Below are positions 1,272-23,818 of a stretch of 32,000 nt of DNA, piece after piece. A program made the position numbers and the translations under genes. Numbering within the stretch: position 1 is the stretch's first letter; each line of letters begins with the position of its first letter. Location: NCBI GenBank assembly GCA_910579575.1, contig CAJTUM010000004.1, positions 80,839 to 112,838 of the forward strand, written 5' to 3'. The stretch comes from an uncultured Eubacteriales bacterium. GTDB taxonomy: Bacteria; Bacillota; Clostridia; Oscillospirales; Butyricicoccaceae. The notes under the pieces were generated by a model. That model did not search any database, had not been told where the DNA came from, and saw only the letters and a program-made list of their open reading frames with translations.

Positions 1272-1796
1272 ATGTATGCCTCCACTTCCGAGATCGTTCG
1301 CAAGGCCAACCATATTGTACGACAATGTGGGACTCGTGACCCCCACAAGATAGCAGACGAACTCGGTATTGAGATTCTCTATTGTCCTTTTAAGGCTCAG
1401 CGTGGTGCCTACAAGGTCATCATGCGAAACCGTTTTATGTTCGTGAAAGAGGATTTGCACCCTGTTATGGAGAACATTGTGCTTCTCCATGAGCTGGGAC
1501 ATGACACTCTGCACCGAGAGGAAGCCACCCAAGTTGGCGGCTTTGAGGAGTTTAATATCTTTGATATTCGGGACAGCAGAATGGAATATGAAGCTAATAT
1601 CTTTGCCACGCAGATTGCACTCCCAGACGACGACTTTTTAGACTTGGCAGAGCAAGGCTACGATGTGCAGCAGATAGCCGCTGCCTTACACTCCGATGTG
1701 AACCTTGTCGCTCTAAAGGCGGACACTCTTATCTCACAGGGGTACAGGCTCAGACCGCAGGAACATCGGAACGACTTTTTACGGTTCGATAAATAA
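1272..1796 (+). CDS. ImmA/IrrE family metallo-endopeptidase (DUF955)
   Basis: HELGH zinc-binding motif in VLLHELGHDTLH. Size and position after the XRE gene match the ImmR/ImmA arrangement. GAGGTGAGGG RBS. Confidence 0.85.
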   Translation: MYASTSEIVRKANHIVRQCGTRDPHKIADELGIEILYCPFKAQRGAYKVIMRNRFMFVKEDLHPVMENIVLLHELGHDTLHREEATQVGGFEEFNIFDIRDSRMEYEANIFATQIALPDDDFLDLAEQGYDVQQIAAALHSDVNLVALKADTLISQGYRLRPQEHRNDFLRFDK

Positions 1797-1819
1797 AACA
1801 TGGGAGGACAACGAAGCGT

Positions 1820-3343
1820 ATGCAGAAGCAGTATATAGCTATCGACTTAAAATCGTTTTACGCTTCGGTGGAGTGCGCCGAAAGAGGTCTCGATCCCCTT
1901 GACGCCAACCTTGTTGTTGCGGACGAAAGCAGAACAGACAAAACCATCTGCCTTGCCGTCTCTCCCGCCCTGAAAGCGCATGGCATATCCGGTCGAGCAA
2001 GGCTCTTTGAAGCCAAGCAGCGTATCAAGGAAGTAAACAGGGAAAGGCAAAGAAAAGCTCCCGAACACCGGTTCAGGGGCAAATCAATCTATGGCTCGGA
2101 GCTGGCAAAAGACCCGACGCTGGAACTTGACCTTGTTATTGCGCCGCCACGAATGGCTTATTACATGGACTACAGCAAAAGCATAGTTGAAATCTATATG
2201 CGCTATGTCTCCTTCGATGATATCTTGGTCTACTCTATCGACGAGGTTTTCATCGACGCCACACCGTATCTCTCAACCTACAACATGAGCGCCCACGATT
2301 TTGCTATGATGTTGATTCAAGAGGTCTTGAAGGAGACTCGAATCACCGCCACCGCTGGAATTGGCACGAATATGTACCTTGCGAAGATTGCGATGGACAT
2401 TGAGGCAAAGCATATCCCCGCCGACAAGGATGGCGTCCGTATTGCAGAGTTGAATGAAACGAGCTATCGGGACAAACTCTGGACACACCGACCGCTTACA
2501 GACTTTTGGCGGGTGGGCAGAGGAATTGCCCGTAAATTGGAGCAAAACGGTCTTTTCACTATGGGCGACATCGCCCGCTGCTCCGAGGGAAAGGATACAG
2601 ACTACTATAACGAAGATCTGCTTTACGAACTCCTCGAAGTAAACGCCGAGCTGCTCATAGATCACGCTTGGGGCTGGGAACCCACTGAAATAGCAGACTG
2701 TAAGGCGTATAAGCCAGAATCAAAAAGTCTCAGTCAGGGGCAAGTGCTATCTTGTCCCTATGACTTTCATGCGGGCAGGATCGTTGTCCTTGAAATGGCA
2801 GACCAACTCTCTATGGACTTGGTTCGGGCAGGTCTTTTCACCGATCAGGTGGTGCTTGATGTTGGCTACGACATTGAGAATCTGACAGACCCAAAACGAG
2901 CTGCCAAGTATAAGGGCTCAATCGTAACAGACCACTATGGGCGGCAAATCCCGAAAGGGGTTCATGGCTCAAAGAGCTTGGGCAGGCAAACATCCTCCAC
3001 CAACAAAATCATGGATGCGGTTGCCGCCATTTATGACAGCATTGTGGATAAGAGCCTTTTAGTCCGGCGCTTCACAGTCGCCGTTACCCATTTGATACCA
3101 GAGGGTGAGGCAGAGTCCGCCATTCAGGTGGGCGAGCAGCTCGACCTTTTCACAGACTATGAGGCATTGGAGCAGCAGCGGAAGGCCGAAGCAGAAGCGC
3201 TTGACCGTGAACTCAAAATGCAGAAGGCGATTATCACCATTCGAGACAAGTTCGGAAAAAATGCCATTGTTAAAGGGCTTAATATGCACGAAGGCGCTAC
3301 TGCTATAGAGCGCAACAAACAAATCGGCGGTCACAAGGCGTGA
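1820..3343 (+). CDS. Y-family DNA polymerase (UmuC/DinB/UvrX-like translesion polymerase)
   Basis: N-terminal IAIDLKSFYASVE and YSIDEVFIDAT catalytic Asp/Glu motifs typical of the IMS/Y-family. 507 aa. GGGAGGA RBS. Confidence 0.9.
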   Translation: MQKQYIAIDLKSFYASVECAERGLDPLDANLVVADESRTDKTICLAVSPALKAHGISGRARLFEAKQRIKEVNRERQRKAPEHRFRGKSIYGSELAKDPTLELDLVIAPPRMAYYMDYSKSIVEIYMRYVSFDDILVYSIDEVFIDATPYLSTYNMSAHDFAMMLIQEVLKETRITATAGIGTNMYLAKIAMDIEAKHIPADKDGVRIAELNETSYRDKLWTHRPLTDFWRVGRGIARKLEQNGLFTMGDIARCSEGKDTDYYNEDLLYELLEVNAELLIDHAWGWEPTEIADCKAYKPESKSLSQGQVLSCPYDFHAGRIVVLEMADQLSMDLVRAGLFTDQVVLDVGYDIENLTDPKRAAKYKGSIVTDHYGRQIPKGVHGSKSLGRQTSSTNKIMDAVAAIYDSIVDKSLLVRRFTVAVTHLIPEGEAESAIQVGEQLDLFTDYEALEQQRKAEAEALDRELKMQKAIITIRDKFGKNAIVKGLNMHEGATAIERNKQIGGHKA

Positions 3344-3353
3344 GGTGATAAGA

Positions 3354-3794
3354 ATGGCCAGTGGGAAAAAAGAATACAGCGACATTTTTGACCGTCCTCA
3401 TCATGTGTCCTCCAAACGGCCTCAAATGTCGAGAAGCAACCGAGCTGCACAGTTCTCACCCTTCGCCGCCCTTACCGGCTATGACAGTCTTGTTGCTGAA
3501 TCCGCAAGAGTTACAGATCAAAAGGTCAAGCTTTCAGATGAGGAATACGAGGTATTGAACAAACGGCTCAACTACCTGCAAGACCACCTTTCAGAATTGC
3601 CTATTATTCAGGTTCTCTACTTTGAACCTGACAAGAAAAAATCCGGCGGCTCCTATGTTGAATTTTCAGGAACAATAAGGCGAGTACGGCAGCACGAAGG
3701 TTTGCTTCTCACGACCACCAGCATTGAAATCCCCTTTGAGAGTATTGCAGAGCTGTCCGGCGACTTTTTTGCCCCTCTCGATTCCCTTTCATGA
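3354..3794 (+). CDS. YolD-like protein (proposed UmuD-equivalent partner of Firmicutes Y-family polymerases)
   Basis: Lies immediately downstream of the polymerase gene. RAAQFSPFAALTGY resembles the conserved YolD-like core. ATG at 3354 with TGAGGTGA 5 nt upstream is preferred over the GTG at 3345. Confidence 0.6.
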   Translation: MASGKKEYSDIFDRPHHVSSKRPQMSRSNRAAQFSPFAALTGYDSLVAESARVTDQKVKLSDEEYEVLNKRLNYLQDHLSELPIIQVLYFEPDKKKSGGSYVEFSGTIRRVRQHEGLLLTTTSIEIPFESIAELSGDFFAPLDSLS

Positions 3795-3833
3795 CAAGAA
3801 CTCCGATAGTCATTTGACTGTCGGAGTTCTTGT
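3794..3833. terminator. 13-bp perfect hairpin between convergent operons
   Basis: ACAAGAACTCCGA (3794-3806) pairs with TCGGAGTTCTTGT (3821-3833) around a 14-nt loop, followed by CTTT on the + strand. It sits between the yolD-like stop and the res stop. Confidence 0.5.
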
Positions 3834-3835
3834 CT

Positions 3836-6800
3836 TTACATTGCGCTCATAATGTTTAGCAAGCTCTGGTAGCTATCCACATCATGGTATTTCACCTTGC
3901 TTGTTGACATCTCATTAAACAGCTTTTTAGCACAGGAGATTTTAGCCTGCTCTATTGGCCTTAGATTCAAACTCTCCATCGTACCCTTTGTTTCAGCGAC
4001 AAAGAAGATATGCTTGACTTTTCCCTCATAAAAGGCGATTGCCCAATCCGGCGAGTAGTTGCCCACTGGGGTGGGAATCTGAAATGTCCTTGGGAGCTTC
4101 GCATAAACACAAACCTCTTCGGCTGCATCCAAATCCTCAGCAAATCGCCTCTCCACACTCTTTTCAGCAGAACCATCCGTAAACACATAGTCCTGAATTG
4201 CCTTCTTTGCCAGAAAAGCTTTTTCAAAGGGCTGTGTGTTTTTCTCTGCGGTGAAAATGTCAGAGTCATATTGCCCTTCAATCGTGTCGTAGGAGATATG
4301 CTCTACAATCATAGTTGCCTTTTGTTCGTTTATGAGCCTTACGACCTTGGAGATAAACTCTTCAGGATTATTCCTGAACATATAAAGCTTGTCCATCCGA
4401 AGTCCTTGCAGAATGGCAGAGGCGGTTTTACGAGTCAAAACAGTACCGGACGCAATCTTGCCAATCAGGTCATACTTGATTTGGCTGGTTTCTGCGTGTC
4501 TGAGCGTCTGCGTCCTCGTCTTTTCCCCAGCGAAGGACTCTCCACGCTCCACCTCATAGGCATTCATTTCGGACTTTTGAGCGCCGATCGTGGCTGTGTA
4601 CTGAAGCTCTGAGACAAAGAGCTTTTCATTGATATGGTCGATAGCCTTCTCTATCAACTCATCAGAATCAAAATCCACGGTGTAGGCGTATTTGTGATTG
4701 ATCTCCTTCCAAAGGGCTTGGAACTCCTTTTTGGCGAAGTTCTCATTGAGCGGATTATCTTTCACCTTAGTTTCATGCCCGTCAGTGAACATATCCTTGA
4801 GAACACTGTCGTCGTAGACGGACTGAATCAGCGCATGGACACCCTCCGCCATCGGCTTCAGCTCCTCCGGCAGCTCCGCAACCGTATTCATTGCCACTTC
4901 GTTCCGGTATTTGTCAGTGACCTTGCGCTTCATATCAACATAACCGTTCTGAATCAGATAGAACTCAATCGCATTTGCGGCGTTGTCATCTATCAGCGTC
5001 GGTACACCATCCACCTTGACATATTTTCCCTTGAAATACTCGCTGGTTGCAACCGTCGGTCTGTCATAAAGGACGGTCTTGATATCGGACTGCAAATCGG
5101 TCACAAAGTCCTTATAGCTTTCACTTGCAATGACCGTCAGCATGTTCACATCATGAATCGAATCCCCGCAGCTCTGGACATCCATTCGGTTTCCGTCCTG
5201 ATTGACACACAGTCGCAGGCCACGACCAACTTCCTGCCGTTTGGCGGTGTTGCTGTCAGAGTGCTTCAGGGTGCAAATCTGGAACACATTGGGGTTGTCC
5301 CAACCTTCCCGCAGGGCAGAGTGGGAGAAAATAAACCTTGTGGGTTCTCCAAAGGAAAGCAGCCGCTCTTTGTTCTTCAAAATCAAGTCATAGGCAGAAA
5401 TGTCGTCTGAGAACTCGCTGCCTCGCTTGAGCTGACTGTCAACACTTCTGCCGGTCTTTTTGTCGATGCTGAAGTATCCCTTATGTACTGCGTTTACATC
5501 ACTGCAAGTGGATTTCAAGTATTTCTGATAGGGCGTGTCAAAGAGCTGGACATAATCGTTCAGAACACTGACATACTCCTGCTCAAACATCTGCCCATAC
5601 TCGCCCAGCACCTCATTGCCATCTTCGTCATACTGGCGGTATTTCGCCACCTCGTCGATGAAGAACAGGGACAGGCACTTGATGCCCTTGTTATAAAGCC
5701 TTTCCTCTTTCTCAAAATGGGAAAGGATCGTCTCACGAATCTGAATCTGGCGCATATCCTTTTCAGAAACATCGCCCACCACATCGCCGGTTTTGATTAC
5801 ATCGCCGTTCGTAAAGGTGACTGTGCCTTGCAGCGGGTCAATCTCAGAAACGGTATAGCCTTTATATTGCTCCATCTCCTGAGACACATAGAATAAATCG
5901 TCCCCCACGCCGAGAATACGGGTCTCACGGTTAATGGACTTGTTGTAGGCAATCTCCAGCTCTATCTTCGCCATAGGCGGCTTCTTGGAAGAGAGCATGA
6001 TTTGCTCCAGATACAGATAGCTGTCTGTGCCTCTGAAGTTCTTGACTTCAAAACCTTTGACTTCAATCTTCTTAACCAGCTTCTTGTTGAAGGCGTCCAG
6101 CGCATCCAACACATAAATCAGGTTGTGCTGCTTTGCATGGGTGGCTGAGTAGTTCAAGCAGAAAAGAGGGTTGAAGTTCTTGAGTGCCTTTTGCGTAACC
6201 TCACCGCCCATTTTCTGCGGCTCGTCCAAAATAATAATGGGTCTGTTTGCTTTGATAACATCAATAGGTCGGCGGGAGCCGAACTCATCACGCTTGGAAT
6301 ATATGATTCTGGCTTCTTTGCTTTTTCCGTCCTCCTTCAGCGAGGAAGCAAACGCCTGGGTGTTGATAATCATCACATTGATGCCGGAGCTGGAAGAGAA
6401 GGTATCCAGTTGATTGAGGTTGGAGCTGTTATAGATAAAGAATCTCGCCTTTTTGCCGTAGTGTTCCATGAAGTGGTCGGCGGTGATCTCAAATGATTTC
6501 TTCACGCCTTCACGAATCGCTATGCTGGGAACGACCACGATAAACTTGCTCCAGCCATACTTCCGGTTCAGCTCGAACATGGTCTTGATATACACATAGG
6601 TCTTTCCAGTGCCGGTCTCCATTTCAATGTCAAGGCTGCACCGGCCCAGGTTCTTCACAAGGGAGGGCGACAGCTTGATGTTGTTCTGGCTCTGTAAGGT
6701 CTGGATATTTTTCAATAGCTGCTCGTCGGACAACTCCACCAGCTCATTTTTATAGCCCGTATCGTTCAGGGGGTCAAGCAGCTCAGAATCCTCCTGTGCC

Positions 6801-6955
6801 ATGTCAAGCGTGATCTGATAATTCTGCGGCTCCGTTTTCTTTCCGAGGTCACGGATATAGCTGATTTTGTCGTGAAATCCCTGACCCTGAAAGACTTTTA
6901 CCACAGCATCAACGGCATCAGTTTGGTATTGTTGGATTTTGAAGTTGAATTTCAT
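3836..6955 (-). CDS. res: Type III restriction endonuclease Res subunit (SF2 helicase plus C-terminal PD-ExK nuclease)
   Basis: Walker A GTGKT (6599-6613), motif II IIILDEPQ, motif VI QEVGRGLRL. C-terminal YSPDW...FFVAETKG is a PD-(D/E)xK motif (Asp codon 4046-4048). The start MKFNFKIQQYQ at 6955 forms an ATGA overlap with the upstream stop; the track start at 7009 is less likely. Confidence 0.9.
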   Translation of the reverse strand: MKFNFKIQQYQTDAVDAVVKVFQGQGFHDKISYIRDLGKKTEPQNYQITLDMAQEDSELLDPLNDTGYKNELVELSDEQLLKNIQTLQSQNNIKLSPSLVKNLGRCSLDIEMETGTGKTYVYIKTMFELNRKYGWSKFIVVVPSIAIREGVKKSFEITADHFMEHYGKKARFFIYNSSNLNQLDTFSSSSGINVMIINTQAFASSLKEDGKSKEARIIYSKRDEFGSRRPIDVIKANRPIIILDEPQKMGGEVTQKALKNFNPLFCLNYSATHAKQHNLIYVLDALDAFNKKLVKKIEVKGFEVKNFRGTDSYLYLEQIMLSSKKPPMAKIELEIAYNKSINRETRILGVGDDLFYVSQEMEQYKGYTVSEIDPLQGTVTFTNGDVIKTGDVVGDVSEKDMRQIQIRETILSHFEKEERLYNKGIKCLSLFFIDEVAKYRQYDEDGNEVLGEYGQMFEQEYVSVLNDYVQLFDTPYQKYLKSTCSDVNAVHKGYFSIDKKTGRSVDSQLKRGSEFSDDISAYDLILKNKERLLSFGEPTRFIFSHSALREGWDNPNVFQICTLKHSDSNTAKRQEVGRGLRLCVNQDGNRMDVQSCGDSIHDVNMLTVIASESYKDFVTDLQSDIKTVLYDRPTVATSEYFKGKYVKVDGVPTLIDDNAANAIEFYLIQNGYVDMKRKVTDKYRNEVAMNTVAELPEELKPMAEGVHALIQSVYDDSVLKDMFTDGHETKVKDNPLNENFAKKEFQALWKEINHKYAYTVDFDSDELIEKAIDHINEKLFVSELQYTATIGAQKSEMNAYEVERGESFAGEKTRTQTLRHAETSQIKYDLIGKIASGTVLTRKTASAILQGLRMDKLYMFRNNPEEFISKVVRLINEQKATMIVEHISYDTIEGQYDSDIFTAEKNTQPFEKAFLAKKAIQDYVFTDGSAEKSVERRFAEDLDAAEEVCVYAKLPRTFQIPTPVGNYSPDWAIAFYEGKVKHIFFVAETKGTMESLNLRPIEQAKISCAKKLFNEMSTSKVKYHDVDSYQSLLNIMSAM

Positions 6956-8250
6956 ATCCCCACATCCTTTTCCAAGAACATAATCGCCACAGAAACCAGG
7001 GCAAGACACCGTTTATAGAAATATTCTATCTGCCGTTCATCTGTAAAGTTAATCTTTGTTGTTTCGTGGTGACGGATTCTGAAATCGTTTCCCATAGTGG
7101 TCAACGCCCTAAACTCGGTCTCATACAAAGTTTTGAAATGAGTTTCAGAAGCGCTCATATCATCAATGATTTTGTTCGCTGATTCAGACTTGTTAAGTGC
7201 CGGAGAATAGTAAGTTTTTAATCTCTCGAACGCATCCCATAGCTTCTCGACTGCGATTTGCATATTGCCTTTACGATAGTAGTTGTCTGCCTCCAGAAGC
7301 AGATCTTTCAACCCCTGCTCTGAAATAATAGATATGTTTCCTTTATCTATAGATATTTCAAAAGTGCTTTCAATCCGTCCCTGCTCAAGTCTATATGATA
7401 TGCCATTGAGTTTGAGCAAAGCATTGATTTGATCTGCAAAATCGTTATCGGCGTTATATTTCTCGTAAAACTCAATCGCATCAAAAACGGAGAACGGGGA
7501 TGTGCTTAACACGAACTGTTCCATATCGCTTGTCTTTGCGTATTGCCTTTTTTCATTATAACATTTCGGCTCGTAGAATTGAGAGATATCTCGGAACACA
7601 TATTCACTTGTGGAAATGTGTTCTTGCCAGCCAGTGTCACTGGTTTCAAGATAAGCATCTGTATGTCTTTCAAGGATGGCATATATCTGCTTCCGTGCCT
7701 CACGACTGATTTTCTGAGTTAGATGGCGTGATTTAATTTCTGCTTTATGTCTTTGTGAAAACGGAATAAATAAAGCGCTTTCGCTCGGGTCGTACTTTCT
7801 CCAACCATAGACATCCCGACCGGAGATTTTTGCTTCGGGGTGCAATTCATATCCGTCTTTCCGGAGAAGTTCGTTTGCCGCATCTAAAAATCTCTTCCAA
7901 TATCCTCCCTCGTCTCTAACTGCTGGGTGGAACACAGAACATAGAAATCTTAGGAGGGTTTCATCTTCTCCGTTCATCAACCCAAAGCGTTCGTCCTCAA
8001 ACACCCATCCATCTTCATAATCATTGTTGTTCACAGTATGTTGCAGAATATCGCCCTCAGCATCATCAAAACGGCTATCAAAGCTCGGGAGTTCTTTGAG
8101 ATTGTAAATTCTCTTCAAAAAATCCAGCTCGCTTAGCCTTCCACAAAAGGCATACCTAACTCGCTTGCTTTCAAAGAATTCTTCTATGTCCAGACCGCAT
8201 ATAAACAATGAGAAAATGTCTCTTCTGGTTATTTCTGAGATATGCTTCAT
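6952..8250 (-). CDS. Uncharacterised 432-aa protein; possible AbiJ-like architecture with a C-terminal HEPN-like domain
   Basis: Clean ORF coupled at both ends (TAATG with mod, ATGA with res). C-terminal helical region carries GNDFRIRHHE (7063-7080), resembling the Arg-His core of HEPN/AbiJ-type domains. The segment FDAIEFYEKY...QINALLKLNGISYRLEQGRIES resembles my memory of AbiJ N-terminal domain signatures. Family call is unverified. Confidence 0.5.
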   Translation of the reverse strand: MKHISEITRRDIFSLFICGLDIEEFFESKRVRYAFCGRLSELDFLKRIYNLKELPSFDSRFDDAEGDILQHTVNNNDYEDGWVFEDERFGLMNGEDETLLRFLCSVFHPAVRDEGGYWKRFLDAANELLRKDGYELHPEAKISGRDVYGWRKYDPSESALFIPFSQRHKAEIKSRHLTQKISREARKQIYAILERHTDAYLETSDTGWQEHISTSEYVFRDISQFYEPKCYNEKRQYAKTSDMEQFVLSTSPFSVFDAIEFYEKYNADNDFADQINALLKLNGISYRLEQGRIESTFEISIDKGNISIISEQGLKDLLLEADNYYRKGNMQIAVEKLWDAFERLKTYYSPALNKSESANKIIDDMSASETHFKTLYETEFRALTTMGNDFRIRHHETTKINFTDERQIEYFYKRCLALVSVAIMFLEKDVGI

Positions 8251-10127
8251 TACAATACCTTCCTCACGGTCTCAGGGCTATACGCAGCAAAAATCTGCTC
8301 AAAGTTCGTGGCTACGCTGTCGCTGGCCATGGAACTGTCCCGCATAACGAAATAATAGGGTTTTTGCTTTGCAATTTCGGTGATTACCTCATCGGTCACA
8401 GCCTCGTCAAAACAGGCAATCAGGTAGTTGCCCTCCACTTTGAACACTCGCTTGCCGGCAATGGCGCTTTCCTCAATCTTACTGGAGAGCAGTACGCCCA
8501 AATCCAGCATGACTTGGAACAGTAAATCCTCCGGTGTTCTATCCTCTTTGATGTTATCCTCAAGGCTGCTGAACAGAGAGGCTTCATAATCGGCGGGGTT
8601 GTAGTAGACATCTTTCATGTTGGAACTATCGCATTTCAGCACACGGAAGCCGATATCAAGGCCATGTGCGGTGAGCCCGGCTTCTTCCTTGATTTTCGCA
8701 CCGGCACGACGAATACGCTCTTTGCCGATTTCGCAGATATTCTTGTAACCGGCTTTATAAGCCTCGCTTTTCTCATCTGTTTCTTCGGGAAGCTGAACCA
8801 TAATAAACTTGCGGTGTCCACCATCCTCAGCGTTGAGCTGCATAACTGCGTGGGCTGTGGTGGAAGAACCAGAGAAGAAATCCAACACAATAGAATCGCT
8901 GTTAGCCGCAATTCTAATCATCTGCTTAATATACTCTACCGGTTTCGGAAAATCAAACAACTTCTCATCGTCAAAAAGTGCCTTAACTTCTCTTGTTGCC
9001 GACTGATTATGTCCCACTTCTTCTGCAAGCCAAAGTGTGCTTGGTGTTCTTCCATCTTGGACATCGGAAAGAAATCTCTTTTTTCGTGGAAATGAATTCC
9101 CATCGCTCCCAAACCAAATTTGCCCATCTACGACCAGCTTCTCCAAGTTTTCTTTAGAATAGACCCAATGCTTCCCAGCCGGGACATCAAATTCCTTCCC
9201 CGTCTTGGGGCTTCTAATAATAAAATGACCGTTGCTTCTTTCTCCGCTCGCAACCAAATCTCCCGATTGCCAAGGCCCTCTTGGATCACCATCAGGATTT
9301 TTATATCGGTCATTCATTTCATTTGTTCGTGGAAGAAGATTTATGTGAATCTGGTTAATACTTTTCGAGTAAACGACTGCGTACTCATGATTCTCAGATA
9401 GATACTTAGCGTCATTTTTTATGCTGTGGATTTTTTGCCAAACAATTGTTGCAACAAAATTGGCCTCACCGAACACATCATCACACAGAACTCGCATATT
9501 TCTTAACTCGTTGTCATCAATACTGATAATAATGATTCCATCATCTGTCAGTAAATCTTTTGCGAGTTTCAACCGTGGATATAGCATATTCAGCCAGTCT
9601 GTGTGAAAGCGCCCATTACTTTCGGTGTTCTGCACCAGCCGGTTGCCGTCCTCGTCAAACTGCCCACTGTCTTCAAGGTACTCGTCCACACTCTCGGCAA
9701 AGTCATCGTTGTATACAAAGTCATTGCCGGTGTTGTAGGGCGGGTCTATGTAAATCATTTTGATTTTGCCCAGATAAGTCTCCTGAAGCAGCTTCAGCAC
9801 TTCCAGATTATCGCCCTCAATATAGAGGTTTTCTGTGGTATCAAAGTCCACGCTTTCCTCTCTGCAAGGTCTAAGCGTCTTGTTAATCGGAGCATTGGCA
9901 AGCAGGACAGACTTCCTCTTATCTGGCCAGGTAAACTGATAGCGCTCCTCCCGACCCTCCACTACCTTGGTGGAAATCTCCTGCATCAGCATATCCTTAT
10001 CAATGGCTCGGACGACCTCGCCGGTGGCCTCGTCAATGGTTTCCGTCACTGCATTGGGAAACAGCGCCGCCAGCTTCTTGAAGTTTTCATCCGCTCTATT
10101 TGCAGTCATCATCTTAAGCTTGTCCAT
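8250..10127 (-). CDS. mod: Type III DNA methyltransferase Mod subunit (N6-adenine/N4-cytosine, beta-class)
   Basis: Motif IV DPPY (9735-9746) in KMIYIDPPYNTGNDF. AdoMet motif I VLDFFSGSSTTAHAV lies C-terminal to it, as expected for the beta permutation. Start MDKLKMMTANRAD at 10127 follows a GGAGGAG RBS; the track start at 10208 is less likely. Confidence 0.9.
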   Translation of the reverse strand: MDKLKMMTANRADENFKKLAALFPNAVTETIDEATGEVVRAIDKDMLMQEISTKVVEGREERYQFTWPDKRKSVLLANAPINKTLRPCREESVDFDTTENLYIEGDNLEVLKLLQETYLGKIKMIYIDPPYNTGNDFVYNDDFAESVDEYLEDSGQFDEDGNRLVQNTESNGRFHTDWLNMLYPRLKLAKDLLTDDGIIIISIDDNELRNMRVLCDDVFGEANFVATIVWQKIHSIKNDAKYLSENHEYAVVYSKSINQIHINLLPRTNEMNDRYKNPDGDPRGPWQSGDLVASGERSNGHFIIRSPKTGKEFDVPAGKHWVYSKENLEKLVVDGQIWFGSDGNSFPRKKRFLSDVQDGRTPSTLWLAEEVGHNQSATREVKALFDDEKLFDFPKPVEYIKQMIRIAANSDSIVLDFFSGSSTTAHAVMQLNAEDGGHRKFIMVQLPEETDEKSEAYKAGYKNICEIGKERIRRAGAKIKEEAGLTAHGLDIGFRVLKCDSSNMKDVYYNPADYEASLFSSLEDNIKEDRTPEDLLFQVMLDLGVLLSSKIEESAIAGKRVFKVEGNYLIACFDEAVTDEVITEIAKQKPYYFVMRDSSMASDSVATNFEQIFAAYSPETVRKVL

Positions 10128-11913
10128 TATGGTCTCCTCCATTATTCCAGAAGTGGTATATTGGGAATTGCTTGAATTTGCTTTGAATAGCAGCAGGCAA
10201 CTTCTCAAAGTGAATCTCAGCGGCAGTTTGTTGCTCTAAAAGGAGATATGCTCCAACGATTGTTTCTTCTCCGACGCCAGGTGTCTCTATAAGACGATAG
10301 AGTTCTTTTTTCTCCTCTTCTTCCAGTTCCCTTTGCCGCTTCTTAATCTGCAAATCATTCAAAGTCCTTATTGGGTAAGGCAGCTCTTCTTCCGAGGCTG
10401 TCTTTATCCAGTCGGAAAAGGATATAGCTGTAGCAAGCATTTCAGGCTTTGAGCTTATATCATAGGCATTCAAAATTTCCAGCAAAAGATAATTTGCTCG
10501 TGTCATCGTTTCTTTGTTACGCTCAGTCTTTTGAAAGGATGGCAGTAGAACATCATATCGAATATTATCCGCTTCAAGGAAATCCTTGGCTCTGAGATTG
10601 AAATACTGAGAAGTTGTCAATTTTTCACCTTTCTTGTCCTCGTAAACACAGAGCAACTCTGTTGTAAAGAAATCCGATATTCTGTACGCATCACCCTCGT
10701 CTCCGTCCTTGAACAGGCATACAACAAATCGCAAATTGCCAACTTCCAATGTCAAGACAGGTGGCAGATCTTTTTTGAGACCACCTACCGGTTCATTATC
10801 AATTATCCCTTTTATTAAAATATTAATATTATTCCAATCCTTAGCCTGTAATGACTTCAGGTCAATATCTCTCTCACACCCGAACCGGTCGAGCAATTGG
10901 ACAATCTTTTTAAAGTAGACCAATCGTCCTCTCATTTCATCTCTTGGGAAGTTGGAAAAATCAGCGCTATCAATATTAAAGGGGAAAGATGCTCCATTAT
11001 ATGTGAAGCTTTTATTATCTATCAGAGCCAGAATAAAGCTCAGGTCAACTGTAAGTGCTCTTAGATTGTGAGTGCCTTTATAATTGAACTTAACCGCTTT
11101 ACTCTCCACTTGAGTAGTAATTGAAAAACTTTCTCCAAAGAGAGTTCTGATTGTTTTACCATCTCGGACAACTCTTACTCTTGTATAGAAAAGTTGCTCT
11201 CCCACCATGATGCGAGCATCCTTTTCTTCATGTACCACCAATCTTTGCGGAATTGCCTCAATCGGTTGTGGAATCACTCCTCCTTTGATATTTGCATACA
11301 GATAAACCTCATTTGTTAACAGGGCTGTTTGTGGATCAACGCCACCAACGCTTGTAACTGAAAGAGTAACACTTTCTAATGTACCCTGTTGCTCAAGCTC
11401 CTCAATTGAGTAAAGATTTGCTTTAGCAAAGCTTGCCTGGCGTCGGCAATCCTCCCAGCAGTTAATGACAATCATCTCTTTTTTATTATTGTCCGACGGG
11501 AATCTGTTAAGTTTGATGCTCTTTGATGCTTGTCCCTTCGCTTCTTCAAGGAGCATCCTGATTTTGATGGGAGTTAAGCTCGCATAATATATCTGAATGT
11601 TTTGTCCGCTATGCCCAATATAGACTACAAAAAAGATAACACCGCCATCGTCAAGGTAGCTATTGAGTTCGATGATAGAAACAGGAAACGATATCTCTTC
11701 CTTTGAAAGATCATCCTTTTCCGTTCCTTTAACCTGAACCGGAATCCTTCTTACTCCATCCTTCGTTTTACGCTTATCTCTGTAAATATAGATATGACCA
11801 TCCCATGTTGGCTCCTTATCGTTATCATTTATAAATGGACTAAGAAGTTCGCACACAGTTATGCTATTTTTTACCGCACTAATTGCAAGGTCTTCTATCG
11901 CTTTCTTGTCCAT
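10114..11913 (-). CDS. 599-aa protein with a DUF4365-like PD-(D/E)xK nuclease-fold N-terminus and a large uncharacterised C-terminal region
   Basis: N-terminus has E..(x)..PTWDGHIYIY..(x)..RIPVQVKGT (Asp codon 11800-11802, QVK ending at 11728), the D...QxK pattern of DUF4365/restriction-endonuclease-like domains. GAGGTGA RBS. The stop overlaps the mod start by 14 nt. Markedly AT-rich. Confidence 0.6.
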   Translation of the reverse strand: MDKKAIEDLAISAVKNSITVCELLSPFINDNDKEPTWDGHIYIYRDKRKTKDGVRRIPVQVKGTEKDDLSKEEISFPVSIIELNSYLDDGGVIFFVVYIGHSGQNIQIYYASLTPIKIRMLLEEAKGQASKSIKLNRFPSDNNKKEMIVINCWEDCRRQASFAKANLYSIEELEQQGTLESVTLSVTSVGGVDPQTALLTNEVYLYANIKGGVIPQPIEAIPQRLVVHEEKDARIMVGEQLFYTRVRVVRDGKTIRTLFGESFSITTQVESKAVKFNYKGTHNLRALTVDLSFILALIDNKSFTYNGASFPFNIDSADFSNFPRDEMRGRLVYFKKIVQLLDRFGCERDIDLKSLQAKDWNNINILIKGIIDNEPVGGLKKDLPPVLTLEVGNLRFVVCLFKDGDEGDAYRISDFFTTELLCVYEDKKGEKLTTSQYFNLRAKDFLEADNIRYDVLLPSFQKTERNKETMTRANYLLLEILNAYDISSKPEMLATAISFSDWIKTASEEELPYPIRTLNDLQIKKRQRELEEEEKKELYRLIETPGVGEETIVGAYLLLEQQTAAEIHFEKLPAAIQSKFKQFPIYHFWNNGGDHNGQA

Positions 11914-11918: not shown

Positions 11919-12518
11919 TCACCTCAACAGTCCCTTTAGCTTGTTTACCTGCTGCACCAACTCAAACTTCTTCTTCGGCTGCTTCTCAGCCCTTGCCAGC
12001 TTTTCCAGCCTTGCTATTTCCTTTTCTAGTTTCTGCCTCTTCTCATCTTCCACAATTTGCTCATCCAGAGAACGGCCTTTCTCAACCGTCACATCACCAA
12101 CAGTGACAACAACATTTTCCCAAACCCTGTCGAGGTCAAGACCATGAAGTTCTATCTGCTGGGTAGCAGTAGTTTTCCACTCCGACTGCATCAGCTTTGT
12201 ATGGTAGATTGCAAGCCTGCTCTGTCCATCGTGTTCAAGGACAAAAAGGATATTCTGTGGAATCAGCTTTGAGAGCATCCCTATTGTCCGTTCCTCATAG
12301 TCCTTTCTTTTGAGGGACACCAAAAGGACAAAAAAGCTCTTTACTTCCTCCCCCGCAGGAATGTTGACCTTTGACGGCGTAATCTCATTGACAATACTGA
12401 TTTTTGAAATGTCAGCGTCTATCTTGGCTTTTGCTGCTGTGTTCATCTGAAACTTGGCATAGATCGCTTTCTTGGGAAGCTGTTTATTCATTTCTGTTGC
12501 CTTTGGCAGCCCAAGCAT
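11919..12518 (-). CDS. DUF4391-like protein with a C-terminal coiled-coil tail
   Basis: About 200 aa. MLGLPKATEMNKQLPKKAIYAKF...ISKISIVNEITPSKVNIP...FVLLVSLKRKDY...IPQNILFVLEH matches my memory of DUF4391, a family usually found next to SNF2 helicases and methyltransferases. Lies 4 nt after the helicase stop with a GGTGAGGTGA RBS. Confidence 0.6.
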   Translation of the reverse strand: MLGLPKATEMNKQLPKKAIYAKFQMNTAAKAKIDADISKISIVNEITPSKVNIPAGEEVKSFFVLLVSLKRKDYEERTIGMLSKLIPQNILFVLEHDGQSRLAIYHTKLMQSEWKTTATQQIELHGLDLDRVWENVVVTVGDVTVEKGRSLDEQIVEDEKRQKLEKEIARLEKLARAEKQPKKKFELVQQVNKLKGLLR

Positions 12519-12522: not shown

Positions 12523-15500
12523 TCACCTCACCACTAAGAAACATATCAATTCAAAATCATCGAGTCCTTTAATTTCATTGGAGAGGAAGCTCACTTGACC
12601 GCCGCCCAGGAAGCTGTCAATGTCGCTCTCTTCCTTCACTTCTATGATGGAGGCTATCGCCTGCCCAAGCAGTTTTGAAAGCTGGGACATATCTCTGCCG
12701 TCCCGAGTTTCCTTGTTAAACTGCCGGTACACTTCGGGAATCGGCTCTGTCTTTCCCTTACACAGCAGGCGCATCTTGTCCAGCATCTGTTTAGGGGAGA
12801 GGTGGTCACAAATCACTTCACCATCGTTACTGATATACACCATGTAAAACGGGTGGAGCCTGTTCTGGTTATCAATATTCACGCTGTCCGAACGGTTTTT
12901 TAGAACATAGACTACGCCTGCCGGAGCATCCTCGGTTGCTGGAACCACCGCATTGAGGCCGAAGGGGGCCTTTTCAATATCAGGATGGTTTTTTATATAC
13001 TCCAACAGGTCAAGGCGAAACTCATTGAGACCCAAATCCATAATAGAAATGCCGGAGGTCATATCCTCAATATCAACGACCTCATCTTGCAGCTTCCGCA
13101 GCTGCGCCTTTCGATACTCCAGATCGGTCTTTTCCTCATCGCTCAAAATGTTATCGTCACCGGTCGCTGTCATGTCCACGATTTTCATTCGTGTCTCGAC
13201 CTTGGCTTTCAGGTTTATGTAGTCATCAAGCGTTACATTAGGCCAGAAGTTTACAAGCTGAATCACATTGTTTCTGCTGCCGATACGGTCGATTCGCCCA
13301 AACCGCTGGATAATACGGACAGGATTCCAGTGTATATCGTAGTTTATTAGGTAGTCGCAATCTTGCAAGTTCTGACCTTCCGAAATACAGTCTGTAGCAA
13401 TGAGAATATCAATATCCTCTTTGGGTATGCTTTCAAAAAGGTCTCTGTCCTTGGAGATGGGCGAGAAGCAGGTCAGAACTGTATTCAAATCGCTTCGGAG
13501 TTTCGGACATGTGGTTCGTCCGTCAACGGTGCCGGAGACCATTGCCGTATTGATATTGTATTTTGCTTTTGCATACCCGCTGATATTGTCATAGAGATAC
13601 CCTGCTGTGTCCGCAAAGGCCGTGAAGATAATAATCTTTCTATTCCCTTCATTGATGGGATGTGCAATTTTGTCATCAATCACGCTGAGTAGCTTTTGCA
13701 GTTTAGAGTCATGCTCAGGGGTAATGTCTCCTACCATGACAGTGAGCAGCTCCAGCACCTCGGCGTCTTTGGACAGGCTGTCTCTCCATGACAGATAATC
13801 CATATCCACAAGGTCAATCTTCACTTTCCGGCCAAGGGAAAACAAATCCTCGGTATTCTGATCCTCGTCGTCAAACTCGTCGATATCAGAAATATCCGTC
13901 AGGTCAAGGTTCAAGCCGGATTGCTTGTCAAATTGGTCGATTGTGCTGATCGTGCTCTCAATAAGCTGCTTTATGCGCTTCAGCGTCAGGTTAAAAGAGA
14001 AAACCGAACTCTCCATGCGTTTCATCAAATTGATTGCTGTCAGCCGCCGGATGCCCTGTTCACGGTTGGCCTGCGTGAAGCCCACATTGACTTTGTTATC
14101 CCCATACAGCTCAGCATATTTGTCCATCTTGCTCGGGAGGATATAGTGCGTCGGCGTGTAGATCGTCAGCGTGAGAAGCATAAGTTGCTCGAATATCTCA
14201 TTGTAATTGATGGCCGACTCTAAATCCGTGAGGTTCGGTCTATGGGAAATCGGGATAAGTCTTGTGGGAAATGTGCCCACATCGCTGGTGTCATAATACT
14301 TCTGAATATGCTTTCTGGAACGGGCAATGGTAACGCTGTCCAGAACCTCGAAAAAATCAAAGTCCAGCATTTTAAGCAGGTTTTCTGTTGTCCGATCCTC
14401 CGGTGCCCATTTGCTCCAGGTGTTAAATGCCCGCTGAGCGTTTCTGAATATCTCATCAATGGAGCGTGAAGTATTGAGCTTATCGTCTATAAAGTCAGTG
14501 TGGCCCTCGTAGGCAAGCGCAAGCTGGTTCTTCAGGTCAAGAAACTTGTTGTTGACGGGGGTAGCCGAGAGCATGAGGACTTTTGTCTTGACGCCGGCCC
14601 TGATTACCTTTTTCATCAAAGTGACATAGCGGTTATCTCTATCGCTCTCATCGGGATTCTCGATGATCTTGCCGCCGTTTCTGAAATTATGAGACTCATC
14701 AATGACTACGAGATCATAATTGCTCCAGTTGATTCTGTTTAAATCTATTCCGTTGGAGAATCCACTCGTTCTGTTGAGATCAGTATGGTATAGGACATCA
14801 TAACGGAGCCGGTCTGCGGCAATTGGGTTATTGATATAGTTGTCCTTGTATGTATTCCAGTTGTTAGCAAGTTTTTTCGGGCATAAAACGAGAACTGTCT
14901 TGTTGCGATTTTCGTAATACTTGATTACCGAAAGTGCCGTAAAGGTTTTTCCCAAGCCAACGCTGTCTGCCAAAATACAACCGTTGTACTTTTCCAACTT
15001 ATTGATGATTGCCAGGGCAGCATCCTTTTGGAAATTGTAGAGCATATTCCAAATCTTACTGTCCTTGAACCCCGTTGCTTCATTTGGTAGCACATCTTCG
15101 GATACATCTTCAAGAAACTCATTAAAAATGTTATAGAGGGTAACAAAGTAAATGAAATCAGGGGAGTTTTCGTTATAGGCAGCGGTAATGCTGTCGATAA
15201 CCTCCTCTGTCACATCCTGTAACACTCGTTTGTCATTCCAGATTTCATTGAAGTCCTTAATAAGTGTTTGCGCTAAGGATTGATCCTTTACGATTGTCGT
15301 GCTAATGACATTTCCTTTTTCACAGCCGAGTTCAACGGTTGTAAAATTGTTGATTGGAGTATAGCCGACATCGCCTACAACCATCTGCCCTTGAATGGAC
15401 TTATCACTGACATTTGATTTGAATGTAACTTTGTTTCTGATCCAATCTGCACATTCTTTTGCAATCGCCTTCTGAGTCAGTTCATTTCGCAGTTTAATTT

Positions 15501-15762
15501 CAAACTCAGTTCCATACAAACTCCGCTCTCGGTTTAGACGGGGAATATAAAACTCCCGCTTTTCTTTCCTTGCTTTTTCTGCTACGAAGGTCGGAGAGGT
15601 AAATATGAAGCGCAACTCGTTTATGGAGCTGAGCTGTGCTTTCAGCTCCTCAAAAGCATAGATTGAGAAGCAAGCCGCTGCAATAGAAAGTTTGCTCCCT
15701 GGTTTTATCTCGACGGACAAATCATCTTTTAGCGTTTTTGTCGTATTATTGATTAGCTCCAT
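12523..15762 (-). CDS. SNF2-family (SF2) helicase/translocase with an N-terminal extension of about 240 aa
   Basis: Motif I ADSVGLGKT (GLGKT 14944-14958), motif II VVIDESHNFRN (DESH 14689-14700), motif III MLSATPVNN, motif VI QRFGRIDRIGS. AGGAGA RBS 7 nt before the ATG at 15762. No HxK(x)4D motif seen in the N-terminal extension. Confidence 0.9.
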   Translation of the reverse strand: MELINNTTKTLKDDLSVEIKPGSKLSIAAACFSIYAFEELKAQLSSINELRFIFTSPTFVAEKARKEKREFYIPRLNRERSLYGTEFEIKLRNELTQKAIAKECADWIRNKVTFKSNVSDKSIQGQMVVGDVGYTPINNFTTVELGCEKGNVISTTIVKDQSLAQTLIKDFNEIWNDKRVLQDVTEEVIDSITAAYNENSPDFIYFVTLYNIFNEFLEDVSEDVLPNEATGFKDSKIWNMLYNFQKDAALAIINKLEKYNGCILADSVGLGKTFTALSVIKYYENRNKTVLVLCPKKLANNWNTYKDNYINNPIAADRLRYDVLYHTDLNRTSGFSNGIDLNRINWSNYDLVVIDESHNFRNGGKIIENPDESDRDNRYVTLMKKVIRAGVKTKVLMLSATPVNNKFLDLKNQLALAYEGHTDFIDDKLNTSRSIDEIFRNAQRAFNTWSKWAPEDRTTENLLKMLDFDFFEVLDSVTIARSRKHIQKYYDTSDVGTFPTRLIPISHRPNLTDLESAINYNEIFEQLMLLTLTIYTPTHYILPSKMDKYAELYGDNKVNVGFTQANREQGIRRLTAINLMKRMESSVFSFNLTLKRIKQLIESTISTIDQFDKQSGLNLDLTDISDIDEFDDEDQNTEDLFSLGRKVKIDLVDMDYLSWRDSLSKDAEVLELLTVMVGDITPEHDSKLQKLLSVIDDKIAHPINEGNRKIIIFTAFADTAGYLYDNISGYAKAKYNINTAMVSGTVDGRTTCPKLRSDLNTVLTCFSPISKDRDLFESIPKEDIDILIATDCISEGQNLQDCDYLINYDIHWNPVRIIQRFGRIDRIGSRNNVIQLVNFWPNVTLDDYINLKAKVETRMKIVDMTATGDDNILSDEEKTDLEYRKAQLRKLQDEVVDIEDMTSGISIMDLGLNEFRLDLLEYIKNHPDIEKAPFGLNAVVPATEDAPAGVVYVLKNRSDSVNIDNQNRLHPFYMVYISNDGEVICDHLSPKQMLDKMRLLCKGKTEPIPEVYRQFNKETRDGRDMSQLSKLLGQAIASIIEVKEESDIDSFLGGGQVSFLSNEIKGLDDFELICFLVVR

Positions 15763-16611: not shown

Positions 16612-17100
16612 CTATCCATTTATGTATTGAACCTGAACGCCACATCTGGCAGCATAATCAATCGTGTTCTTTGTTCCGCTTTTCTCGCCGTTGAATACTG
16701 CGATAACAAGGGCAGAATGGTCTACCATCCATTCGTTTCGTCTCTGATATGCTCCCGCATGATAGGCAGGGCATATATACCGAATCAAGTCAGCTTTACC
16801 AAGCAGTTCAGCATATCGTTCCTTCCATTCCCTCGACCACCGGCTCTCAAAGCCGTCAAAAGGCACAGCAGCAATCAAATGCAACTCTGGATTTTCTTCT
16901 CTCAACCGGACAACAACTTCGCCAGCCCAAATATCTACACCGTAAGCCATCCCCGTTATGAAGGTCGTGTACCCAGCCTCTATTGCCTTGACAATGACTT
17001 TTTCCAAGTCATGCCTGATTGCGCCCTCTGAGCGAGTGAGTTTCTGTGGCCTATGACCTGTGAAGCAGCACCGCTTTTTTCGTTTTTCCTTCTCTGTCAT
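16612..17100 (-). CDS. SLOG-superfamily protein, DUF1273/YpsA-like
   Basis: CCFTGHRPQKL near the N-terminus, FITGMAYGVDIWAGE, and a C-terminal SGTKNTIDYA segment match the DUF1273 (YpsA) Rossmann-like signature. AGGTGG RBS. Confidence 0.75.
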   Translation of the reverse strand: MTEKEKRKKRCCFTGHRPQKLTRSEGAIRHDLEKVIVKAIEAGYTTFITGMAYGVDIWAGEVVVRLREENPELHLIAAVPFDGFESRWSREWKERYAELLGKADLIRYICPAYHAGAYQRRNEWMVDHSALVIAVFNGEKSGTKNTIDYAARCGVQVQYING

Positions 17101-17236
17101 CTGAAAACCACCTATCGCCTATACCTGTTTCTTATTCAAAGTCATTATATCGTGTATTGTGGATTTTAGTCAACAACACACGCTTAATTTTCTCGCCTGT
17201 TGTGGATATAATTTAACGAGAAGGCGAGGTGAGAAA

Positions 17237-17572
17237 ATGGCGGATACCGAGCTAAGTCTGATAGAAATAGGGAATAGAATCACAGCACGCCGAAAACAGA
17301 TGGGTCTAACACAAGAAGCTCTTGCTGAAAAGGGTGACATGACCACACAGTTTGTCTCCTATGCAGAAGCAGGAAAGAGAGCCATGAGACCCGAGAACCT
17401 CTTGAAGATTTCATCTGCTCTCGGTGTCAGTGCCGACTACTTGCTTACCGGAGATATTGTTGATAAAGACCTCCTTATCCTCTCCGACAAGATGCGTTCT
17501 CTCACACCAGAGCAGCTACGAATTGTTGAAAATGTGATTGACGAATGCAACCGACTTTTCAATAACACCTGA
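17237..17572 (+). CDS. XRE family HTH transcriptional regulator
   Basis: IGNRITARRKQMGLTQEALAEKGDMTTQFVSYAEAGKRAMRPENLLKISSALGVSADYLL is a typical HTH_3 sequence. ATG at 17237 after GAGGTGAG is preferred to the track start at 17159. Confidence 0.85.
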   Translation: MADTELSLIEIGNRITARRKQMGLTQEALAEKGDMTTQFVSYAEAGKRAMRPENLLKISSALGVSADYLLTGDIVDKDLLILSDKMRSLTPEQLRIVENVIDECNRLFNNT

Positions 17573-17580
17573 TATGTACT

Positions 17581-17609
17581 ACTGCCACCCTGACGGGTGG
17601 CAGTTTTTT
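17581..17609 (+). terminator. Rho-independent terminator
   Basis: ACTGCCACCC (17581-17590), loop TGAC, GGGTGGCAGT (17595-17604), then a T-run through 17609. It lies immediately after the XRE stop. Confidence 0.8.
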
Positions 17610-19602: not shown

Positions 19603-19645
19603 TGAAGCCCTCCTTTCTCATTGACAGATAAAGGCAAAGCGAGGG

Positions 19646-21979: not shown

Positions 21980-22337
21980 TCGACTTCATAGCCTCCTTTG
22001 TCTTTTTCTCCATGCTGGGCTTCATCAGCTCATAGTAGGTGTTGGTCGCTCGGAAGGTCAGCTTCTTCGGCATAATGAACTCGGATTTCACCCAAGTGCA
22101 AATAAACTTCTCCGCCGTCATGCCGTTATACTTCAAGAACCCAAGTGCCGCAAAGGGTGCTGCGCCCAAAATGCAAACCCACGATACCGTTTCCGTCCCA
22201 AGATGGGGTTTCAACAGAAAATAGAGTCCGACAGCCACCACACAAGCACAGGCAGAAAAAATGAACTGTCGCAGAGACAGTCCGAAAAACATGGATTCGG
22301 TGTAGTTGCGAATCTCTCGATTAATCTTTACTTCCAT
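21972..22337 (-). CDS. PrgI/TcpE-like small T4SS membrane protein
   Basis: MEVKINREIRNYTESMFFGLSLRQFIF followed by two hydrophobic helices. Lies directly upstream of virB4. AAGGAG RBS before the ATG at 22337. Confidence 0.7.
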   Translation of the reverse strand: MEVKINREIRNYTESMFFGLSLRQFIFSACACVVAVGLYFLLKPHLGTETVSWVCILGAAPFAALGFLKYNGMTAEKFICTWVKSEFIMPKKLTFRATNTYYELMKPSMEKKTKEAMKSND

Positions 22338-22503
22338 TTTCGCTCCTTTCTCGGAGGGCAGCTTCACGAAGTTCCGCCTTGCAGACACATTCATCAGCAA
22401 GGCAGTTTATCTCGCCTTTTCGTTGCCCCCCGTAGTAAAGACAATATTTGCAGTCACAGTCGGCAAGCGTGTAGCCCTGCCACCTGTTGTAGATTCTCTT
22501 CAT
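22321..22503 (-). CDS. Small cysteine-rich protein (Cys_rich_VLP-like)
   Basis: 60 aa with 7 Cys (DCDCKYCLYYGG...INCLADECVCK). AAGGTG lies 6 nt before the ATG at 22503. This position is conserved in such T4SS operons as I recall them. Confidence 0.5.
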   Translation of the reverse strand: MKRIYNRWQGYTLADCDCKYCLYYGGQRKGEINCLADECVCKAELREAALRERSENGSKD

Positions 22504-22513
22504 GGCGCACACC

Positions 22514-23350: not shown

Positions 23351-23374
23351 TCTTCGCACCTCCTCCTATAAACG

Positions 23375-23803: not shown

Positions 23804-23818
23804 TGATATTTCCTCCAT

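Follow-up and report, generated by a model that had tools for sequence, protein, structure and literature searches.

An AbiJ-related gene between the Mod and Res genes of a type III-like restriction operon: a candidate exchangeable Abi-type effector

AbiJL and its place between Mod and Res

The stretch of DNA analysed here (the window) comprises 32,000 nucleotides (nt) from an uncultured Eubacteriales bacterium (contig CAJTUM010000004.1, positions 80,839 to 112,838). It carries an operon of six genes in the order SNF2–DUF4391–variable gene–Mod–AbiJL–Res, where Mod and Res are the methyltransferase and the helicase-endonuclease of a type III-like restriction-modification (R-M) system. The subject of this report is AbiJL, an AbiJ-related gene lying exactly between Mod and Res. 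The gene, its junctions, its two neighbors and its domains are as follows.

6952..8250, minus strand: AbiJL, 432 amino acid residues (aa), ATG start; AbiJ_NTD3, AbiJ_NTD4 and a C-terminal helical effector-like domain (open reading frame, Pfam, PADLOC PDC-S32, homologues)
8248..8252, minus strand: TAATG junction; the Mod stop TAA (8252-8250) and the AbiJL ATG (8250-8248) have one base in common (plus strand 'catta')
6952..6955, minus strand: ATGA junction; the Res ATG (6955-6953) overlaps the AbiJL TGA (6954-6952) (plus strand 'tcat')
8250..10127, minus strand: type III Mod methyltransferase (PF01555, E=8e-38; PADLOC MTase_III, E=1.7e-243); mechanical open reading frame to TTG 10208
3836..6955, minus strand: type III Res, 1039 aa, SF2 helicase with C-terminal endonuclease (Pfam ResIII and RE_endonuc; PADLOC REase_III, E=1.1e-290)
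7777..8241, minus strand: AbiJ_NTD3 (PF18860), aa 4-158 (Pfam E=7.1e-53; 178.9 bits against a cut-off of 32.5)
7369..7764, minus strand: AbiJ_NTD4 (PF18863), aa 163-294 (Pfam E=1.2e-11; 45.7 bits against a cut-off of 34)
6955..7344, minus strand: C-terminal five-helix domain, aa 303-432, possibly of HEPN-like fold; C-terminal family of PDC-S32 and of the 'AbiJ-NTD4 domain-containing protein' (AlphaFold2 models, Foldseek, PaREP1)
7063..7092, minus strand: signature GNDFRIRHHE, aa 387-396, with family-invariant G387, N388, I392, R393, H394 and E396 (column counts over 123 representatives)

An initial annotation made from the sequence alone had proposed an open reading frame at 6952-8250 sharing TAATG with mod and ATGA with res, flanked by type III genes; the codon overlaps were borne out, and the PADLOC matches listed above agree with the type III assignment of both flanks. 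A Shine-Dalgarno-like element (GGAAGG) is situated 8 nt 5′ of the AbiJL ATG. Although the mechanically called Res frame reaches GTG 7009, the homologues all begin MKFNFKIQQYQTD at ATG 6955; Mod most likely starts at ATG 10127 (MDKLKM...), as in its homologues, rather than at TTG 10208. The Mod–AbiJL junction is equally tight in 14 related loci (L001-L014), and the 4-nt overlap of AbiJL with Res is found in six of eight intact related loci, all six being called gene tables. A hairpin scan of the operon revealed no terminator-like hairpin or promoter around AbiJL above the shuffled background; the sole strong hairpin follows Res. Since AbiJL has 1229 homologues (E<=1e-3), among them many full-length proteins (63-72% identity) and one named 'AbiJ-related protein' in UniRef, together with 390 tblastn-confirmed stretches in a species-representative genome collection, it is far beyond chance and is confirmed as a real, conserved gene.

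The AbiJ N-terminal domains (NTDs) proposed in the initial annotation are present, AbiJ_NTD3 and AbiJ_NTD4 both scoring above the Pfam gathering thresholds, and its remark that an ATPase domain is absent also holds: Pfam, NCBIfam and PADLOC gave no P-loop or ABC match for AbiJL. An NCBIfam scan gave no match of any kind, the PADLOC AbiJ model does not match the protein, and neither the protein nor a family profile found anything above chance level among PDB sequences. The PADLOC model PDLC04995 of PDC-S32 matches aa 251-426 (E=4.3e-49; model positions 118-300 of 301) and PDLC04997 matches over NTD4 (E=4e-7). Residues 1-162 (NTD3) are matched by none of the PDC-S32 models, so that NTD3 is extra to PDC-S32.

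The C-terminal domain on its own retrieved 793 cluster representatives (50% identity clusters), whose architectures are mostly NTD4 plus this domain (~300 aa) or NTD3, NTD4 and this domain (~430 aa). Plasmid matches to the C-terminal half are 'AbiJ-NTD4 domain-containing proteins', including a 295-aa protein of Clostridium butyricum; the NTD4 exemplar of Anantharaman et al. is likewise from C. butyricum and was described as 'fused to AbiJ' (PMC3710099). From this we infer that these authors may have counted the AbiJL-type C-terminus as an AbiJ-type HEPN domain. AbiJ NTDs are also paired with non-AbiJ effectors (PMC3710099) and were seen here in Shedu SduA fusions; because of such pairings the NTDs alone do not define AbiJ.

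AlphaFold2 modeled the isolated C-terminal domain with a pLDDT of 82.5 and a pTM of 0.79, and in both models (isolated and full length) the GNDFRIRHHE motif is located in the loop joining the last two helices. The initial annotation had placed this motif at 7063-7080, which encodes only RIRHHE (aa 391-396). It had also named an 'RIRHH' Arg-His core, of which one part stands: R393 and H394 are invariant, whereas R391 and H395 vary, being kept in 57% and 73% of 123 diverse family representatives. Across the same set N388, R393, H394 and E396 are 99-100% conserved, and W338, D339, E342, R343, K345, T346, K354, S357, E379, Y410 and R414 are invariant or nearly so; so many invariant polar residues within one domain suggest a catalytic or ligand-binding site.

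The position of the motif fits the HEPN expectation; its spacing does not. The canonical HEPN Rx4-6H pattern is absent from AbiJL, in which R391 and H395 form an Rx3H that is conserved at neither end and the invariant R393 and H394 are adjacent; the R-[polar]-x3-5-H motif of SadR type is absent as well, its Arg position being an invariant Gly. Some accepted HEPN families do deviate from Rx4-6H, PaREP1 for instance lacking the R (PMC3710099). The structural search with an AlphaFold model that the initial annotation had recommended gave a mixed answer: HEPN structures lead the ranking, but with E-values above 0.3 and TM scores of about 0.5. In the Foldseek search of the isolated domain against the PDB, 2q00 was placed at rank 1 (probability 0.92, TM 0.48/0.52) and 4nqf, a 'HEPN domain protein', at rank 2 (probability 0.96, TM 0.53/0.50), with 2jpu and 2hsb at ranks 5 and 12; the full-length model gave noise except for 2q00. 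The first of these is the PaREP1 HEPN-T structure (PMC3710099), and 4nqf served a 2026 review as the reference for calling the Lactococcus lactis AbiJ HEPN-like (PMC13064643). No HEPN family of Pfam scored above its threshold; the PaREP1 profile (PF05942) matched the isolated C-terminus at E=1.1e-3 (19.3 bits, under the cut-off of 24.4) and matched 5 of the 123 family members. By these models the HEPN identity of the domain is weakly supported, and it is possibly a divergent HEPN-like ribonuclease (RNase).

Relatives of AbiJL and the contents of the Mod–Res junction

All relatives of at least 63% identity (the 14 loci L001-L014, and L192/L193) lie between Mod and Res in SNF2–DUF4391–X–Mod–AbiJL–Res operons, and in all of these, as in the window, the junctions abut tightly or overlap. 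The embedding and translational coupling proposed initially are thus retained throughout this clade. Its hosts are Ruminococcus, Lachnospiraceae, Oscillospiraceae, Holdemania, Phascolarctobacterium and a Treponema; the SNF2 protein is ~1080 aa and the DUF4391 protein ~200 aa, with one or more variable genes before Mod.

Beyond this clade the picture is different. The genome-context survey covered the 80 best AbiJL genome loci, and 73 of them, at 43-58% identity and with the same length and the same invariant residues, have no type III Mod or Res adjacent. Because of these 73 loci we regard the AbiJL family as basically stand-alone, with one clade resident in the type III-like operon. The stand-alone relatives occur in mobile or defense contexts, beside recombinases, ParA and relaxases. 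Their upstream neighbors include an RNA U5-methyltransferase (14 of 62), an abutting or overlapping Abi_C gene (6), Schlafen/AlbA_2 proteins and recombinases; those downstream include ParA, and R-M neighbors are few.

Two of these neighborhoods deserve description. In six genomes a canonical Abi_C gene of AbiJ type (LRNPYGSGHG; ~266-271 aa) runs up to or into the start of the stand-alone AbiJL (L019:9196-9993, L041:9199-10011, L052:5589-6383, L054:3372-4166, L055:4238-5050 and L059:9199-10011). The same Abi_C subtype, with the N-terminus MPxLSQxE.G.F.KL.N..G.VL.FS, is the Mod–Res cargo of L100 and L111; the adjoining Abi_C and AbiJL genes could constitute a cassette of two genes or encode a heteromeric pair of HEPN proteins. 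In the 14 cases of the methyltransferase (L029-L048 and others) AbiJL begins ~77-105 nt downstream of a TRAM/U5 RNA methyltransferase gene (RlmD-like). Staphylococcus aureus SadR is located downstream of rlmH (PMC13590631), an analogy which suggests that rRNA methyltransferase genes adjoin insertion hotspots.

Within the embedded clade AbiJL diverges faster than its neighbors, with a mean pairwise identity of 70% against 79% for Res and SNF2. The window AbiJL is 63-67% identical to every other embedded copy, while the window Res is 84-86% identical to several; these values suggest replacement of the cargo allele or its accelerated evolution. The Spearman correlation of pairwise identities is 0.84 between Res and SNF2 and 0.41 for AbiJL against them, and on account of this weak correlation (rho 0.41) co-evolution of AbiJL as a subunit of Res is disfavored.

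Related operons were also collected through their Res protein, which yielded 17 loci in a virus collection (16 with both Mod and Res) and 80 in metagenomes (70 with both); a metagenome junction of under 200 nt was scored as empty. Of the 86 operons having both genes, 45 carry nothing between Mod and Res; the contents of the junction are as follows.

Virus collection (n=16): empty, 7
Virus collection: AbiJ/Abi_C (L095, L100, L111), 3
Virus collection: RhuM (L097, L105), 2
Virus collection: HEPN_AbiV (L099), 1
Virus collection: SoFic (L107), 1
Virus collection: 255-aa membrane protein, 1
Virus collection: 118-aa protein, 1
Metagenomes (n=70): empty, 38
Metagenomes: RhuM (five with a DUF2971 gene), 15
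Metagenomes: Abi_C, 1
Metagenomes: distant AbiJL (38% identity, motif IGNQYQIRHFE) with a YhcG nuclease (L173), 1
Metagenomes: other, 15

Pfam analysis of ten unidentified insert genes revealed three Schlafen/AlbA_2 proteins with HATPase_c_4, three YhcG/DUF1016 proteins (one being the second gene of L173), one RhuM-companion DUF2971, one deoxyribosyltransferase-like protein, one SMC/ABC ATPase and one without a match. The SMC/ABC-type ATPase (SMC_N, AAA_21; L158:2308-5358) is a 1017-aa protein in the architecture class of PrrC and RloC. Bona fide HEPN Abi genes (AbiJ/Abi_C and AbiV) thus fill the junction in related operons, and AbiJ, AbiV and SoFic are known anti-phage genes by their PADLOC models. 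Cargo of every kind abuts or overlaps Mod and Res. This comparison of gene content shows that the content of the Mod–Res junction has been exchanged between operons, and the junction is best read as a recombination slot.

Interpretation and comparison with known systems

Taken together, these data point to AbiJL as an autonomous abortive infection (Abi)-type sensor-effector, an exchangeable cargo of the Mod–Res junction that provides a second defense layer on a conjugative element; we put the probability of this reading at roughly 0.6. It is the most likely one because relatives are found outside type III operons and because the junction is either empty or occupied by unrelated toxins, and for the latter reason exchangeable autonomous cargo fits better than a dedicated partner of Mod and Res. 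AbiJL would be co-transcribed and translationally coupled with Mod and Res, and each round of R-M enzyme synthesis would thus also yield the second layer. Infection would presumably be sensed through the protein's own N-terminal domains (NTD3 and NTD4), upon which the C-terminal domain would be unleashed and the cell arrested, as in abortive infection. Phages escaping restriction could be caught in this manner with no physical control by Mod or Res.

Several points weigh against this interpretation. Tight coupling, and the fact that relatives of at least 63% identity occur only in embedded form, are equally compatible with a functional Mod/Res interaction. Stand-alone status was assigned by tblastn with the window Mod and Res and by Pfam on the immediate (+/-1) neighbors, a procedure which remoter R-M genes of another type could escape, and the slot frequencies are rough because the Res-based samples contain redundant gut contigs. 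As to the effector, Foldseek E-values for the C-terminal domain are all >=0.35 (0.35-0.84 for the top HEPN structures) and a designed helical binder or bundle stands at rank 3. Abi_C (PF14355) found no match at E<=10 on the isolated C-terminus and none among the 123 family representatives; hhalign of the C-terminal family against Abi_C gave a probability of 0.8%, a negative that counts as weak because the Abi_C profiles were shallow (6-10 sequences: first six close ones, later ten diverse ones). RNase chemistry is therefore best described as plausible but unproven, and PDC-S32 itself is a candidate family in PADLOC.

The rival favored by the initial annotation is a guard of the PrrC kind, i.e., a latent toxin bound and held inactive by Mod/Res and freed when a phage anti-restriction factor disables the enzyme. 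The embedding between mod and res with codon overlaps, kept in all relatives of at least 63% identity, is what such a guard would lead one to expect, as is the distant AbiJL (38% identity) in the same slot of the distant operon L173; there is also the precedent of PrrC in EcoprrI (PMC12707154), which has been generalized to HEPN genes in R-M operons (PMC3710099). We nevertheless consider it unlikely. AbiJL retains two sensor-type NTDs and every family-invariant residue of its same-length stand-alone relatives, it has no ABC ATPase, and it co-varies weakly with Res; moreover, 45 of 86 operons have nothing in the slot, which elsewhere holds unrelated folds (RhuM, Fic, Schlafen, YhcG, AbiV), and this argues against a specific Mod/Res interface. 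A bolder version, in which AbiJL founds a new HEPN-derived nuclease family with the catalytic Arg moved beside the His (G-N-x3-I-R-H-x-E), the embedded clade is gated by Mod2Res as the first type III counterpart of PrrC-EcoprrI to sense anti-restriction, and the Mod–Res and DUF4391–Mod junctions are dedicated, translationally coupled cassette sites for Abi effectors, is a long shot.

The turnover of slot cargo might instead reflect a selfish hitch-hiker or addiction module, a toxin-like gene in a permissive 'genomic sink' (an idea discussed in 10.1101/2024.01.29.577857) that stabilizes the element rather than opposing phages and persists by linkage to, and co-transfer with, the R-M operon and the conjugative element. 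The conjugative functions of the window (relaxase, type IV secretion system (T4SS) coupling protein, VirB4-like ATPase, CHAP hydrolase) and the recombinases, ParA and relaxases beside the stand-alone relatives would suit it, yet no antitoxin partner is evident, the reading frame is intact and of the same length across hundreds of relatives, and other cargo of the slot consists of known anti-phage genes (PADLOC AbiJ, AbiV, SoFic); we hold this explanation to be quite improbable. Least credible of all is that AbiJL serves the type III enzyme as a non-toxic accessory or regulatory subunit, with a part in assembly, specificity or the timing of Res expression. Its position between mod and res with coupled translation would agree with such a role, and type III systems are known to control res at the level of translation (PMC12707154), but about half of the closely related operons work with an empty slot, the AbiJL family lives mostly outside R-M contexts, and its domain family is tied to Abi-type proteins.

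The closest precedent for the arrangement is PrrC/EcoprrI, which shares with AbiJL a toxin-type gene inside an R-M operon, in the same orientation, and a proposed role as second line when restriction fails. PrrC differs in possessing an N-terminal ABC (Rad50/SbcC-like) ATPase and a canonical HEPN anticodon-nuclease domain, in residing in a type Ic hsd locus, and in its demonstrated latency, the R-M complex masking it and T4 Stp releasing it. AbiJL has no ATPase, a non-canonical motif, a type III-like host operon and AbiJ-NTD sensors of its own, and its masking is hypothetical. The presence of HEPN and other toxin genes in R-M operons, including 'AbiJ solos in R-M operons' and RhuM/DOC, and the analogy with PrrC were set out in 2013 (PMC3710099).

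The AbiJ/SadR proteins (Abi_C, PF14355 HEPN RNases, including NTD3 plus Abi_C) resemble AbiJL in having AbiJ_NTD3 and, more generally, a sensor N-terminus with a small helical C-terminal effector, and canonical Abi_C genes occupy the identical slot of the sister operons L095, L100, L111 and L123. SadR, a canonical AbiJ homologue, is a phage-defense RNase (PMC13590631). An N-x5-H spacing is common to SadR (RNEYGDAH; PMC13590631), the Abi_C genes found here (LRNPYGSGHG) and AbiJL (GNDFRIRH), which we regard as a lead and not as demonstrated homology. AbiJL differs in that an invariant Gly takes the place of the Arg in R-N-x5-H and the residue directly before the His is an invariant Arg, in its additional NTD4, and in the lack of a Pfam Abi_C, PADLOC AbiJ or hhalign match in the C-terminal domain.

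PDC-S32, to whose model PDLC04995 the C-terminal 176 aa belong by their match, is one of the PDC series of Payne et al. and, like AbiJL, is embedded in a multi-gene defense system; RhuM (PDC-S05), another cargo of the Mod–Res slot, comes from the same catalogue. The approach of Payne et al. (2024), 'guilt-by-embedding', delimited the PDC families by their location within BREX, DISARM and type I R-M systems; embedded genes of defense systems are usually defense genes, and 145 PDC candidates were added to PADLOC (10.1101/2024.01.29.577857). That survey was directed at Hma, BREX, DISARM and type I R-M and, unlike ours, did not extend to type III mod–res junctions (10.1101/2024.01.29.577857). TgvAB in a type I R-M locus (an experimentally autonomous example; PMC11411939) and BrxU in BREX are autonomous nested defense genes which protect alone and complement a modification-based host system. 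They are type IV restriction nucleases directed against modified DNA, in contrast to an Abi-type sensor-effector.

AbiJL is, then, a further case of the known nesting of defense genes inside defense systems, and no new category is opened; the literature and PADLOC already contain both the idea and the candidate family. A search of the accessible literature library retrieved no description of an SNF2–DUF4391 type III operon or of embedding at type III mod–res junctions, nothing relevant for DUF4391 and nothing for PDC-S32. What is new is the type III-like host operon with its SNF2 and DUF4391 genes, the exact Mod–Res junction acting as a slot, and the non-canonical effector signature. Were AbiJL an autonomous Abi effector, gut bacteria would have in this operon, borne on a conjugative element, a compact immune module of two or three layers: restriction of DNA, the Abi-type effector and the cargo gene of the second slot. 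The junction is also a natural experiment, the same scaffold being empty or carrying AbiJ, AbiV, RhuM, SoFic, Schlafen, YhcG or AbiJL, and its comparison could separate mere co-regulation from real cross-talk with restriction. Finally, the 793 clusters mark a widespread candidate effector family with a sharply defined signature for mutagenesis.

The host operon and the conjugative element

The remaining genes of the operon and the hairpin at its end are as follows.

12523..15762, minus strand: SNF2-family helicase (DrmD-like), first gene of the operon (SNF2-rel_dom, Helicase_C; PADLOC C3a139 'HKD+Snf2', E=3e-126, full length)
11919..12518, minus strand: DUF4391 protein, a core gene of the operon (PF14335, E=7.5e-32), present in all sufficiently long related operons
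10114..11913, minus strand: 599-aa cargo of the DUF4391–Mod slot, with a weak DUF4365-like N-terminus (Pfam)
3793..3834, no strand: perfect hairpin with a 19-bp stem directly after the Res stop, between the convergent Res and the open reading frame 3345-3794 (plus strand); likely the operon terminator

The hairpin is probably a bidirectional terminator. With Mod and Res in one operon the system classes as type III, with a Res that scores 384 bits against NCBIfam PRK15483, below the cut-off of 564; the SNF2 and DUF4391 genes are atypical of classical type III. The SNF2 protein matches the DISARM DrmD models as well as 'HKD+Snf2', and the operon therefore resembles DISARM-like modification systems no less than classical type III R-M.

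The DUF4391–Mod junction represents a second variable site, holding TIR proteins, a KAP NTPase, the DUF4365-like 599-aa protein, proteins without a family, or nothing. The 599-aa type is found in the window and L011, TIR in L005-7, L009 and L012, and a KAP P-loop NTPase in L013, while the site is empty in L102.

The operon is carried by a conjugative element, as indicated by the presence of the relaxase, T4SS coupling protein, VirB4-like ATPase and CHAP hydrolase. Megablast of the operon and tblastn of DUF4391 against plasmids gave no match. The genes of the element span 16612-31372 and 1272-3343 of the window and include the following.

27502-28878, minus strand: MobA/VirD2 relaxase
23819-25630, minus strand: T4SS coupling protein
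19646-21979, minus strand: VirB4/TraG-like ATPase
17608-19602, minus strand: CHAP hydrolase
16612-17100, minus strand: YpsA/SLOG protein
1820-3343, plus strand: ImpB/MucB Y-family polymerase
1272-1796, plus strand: IrrE/M78 peptidase

In Dysgonomonas a homologue of the 599-aa protein (33% identity; L083:111-1898) is the immediate upstream neighbor of a stand-alone AbiJL.

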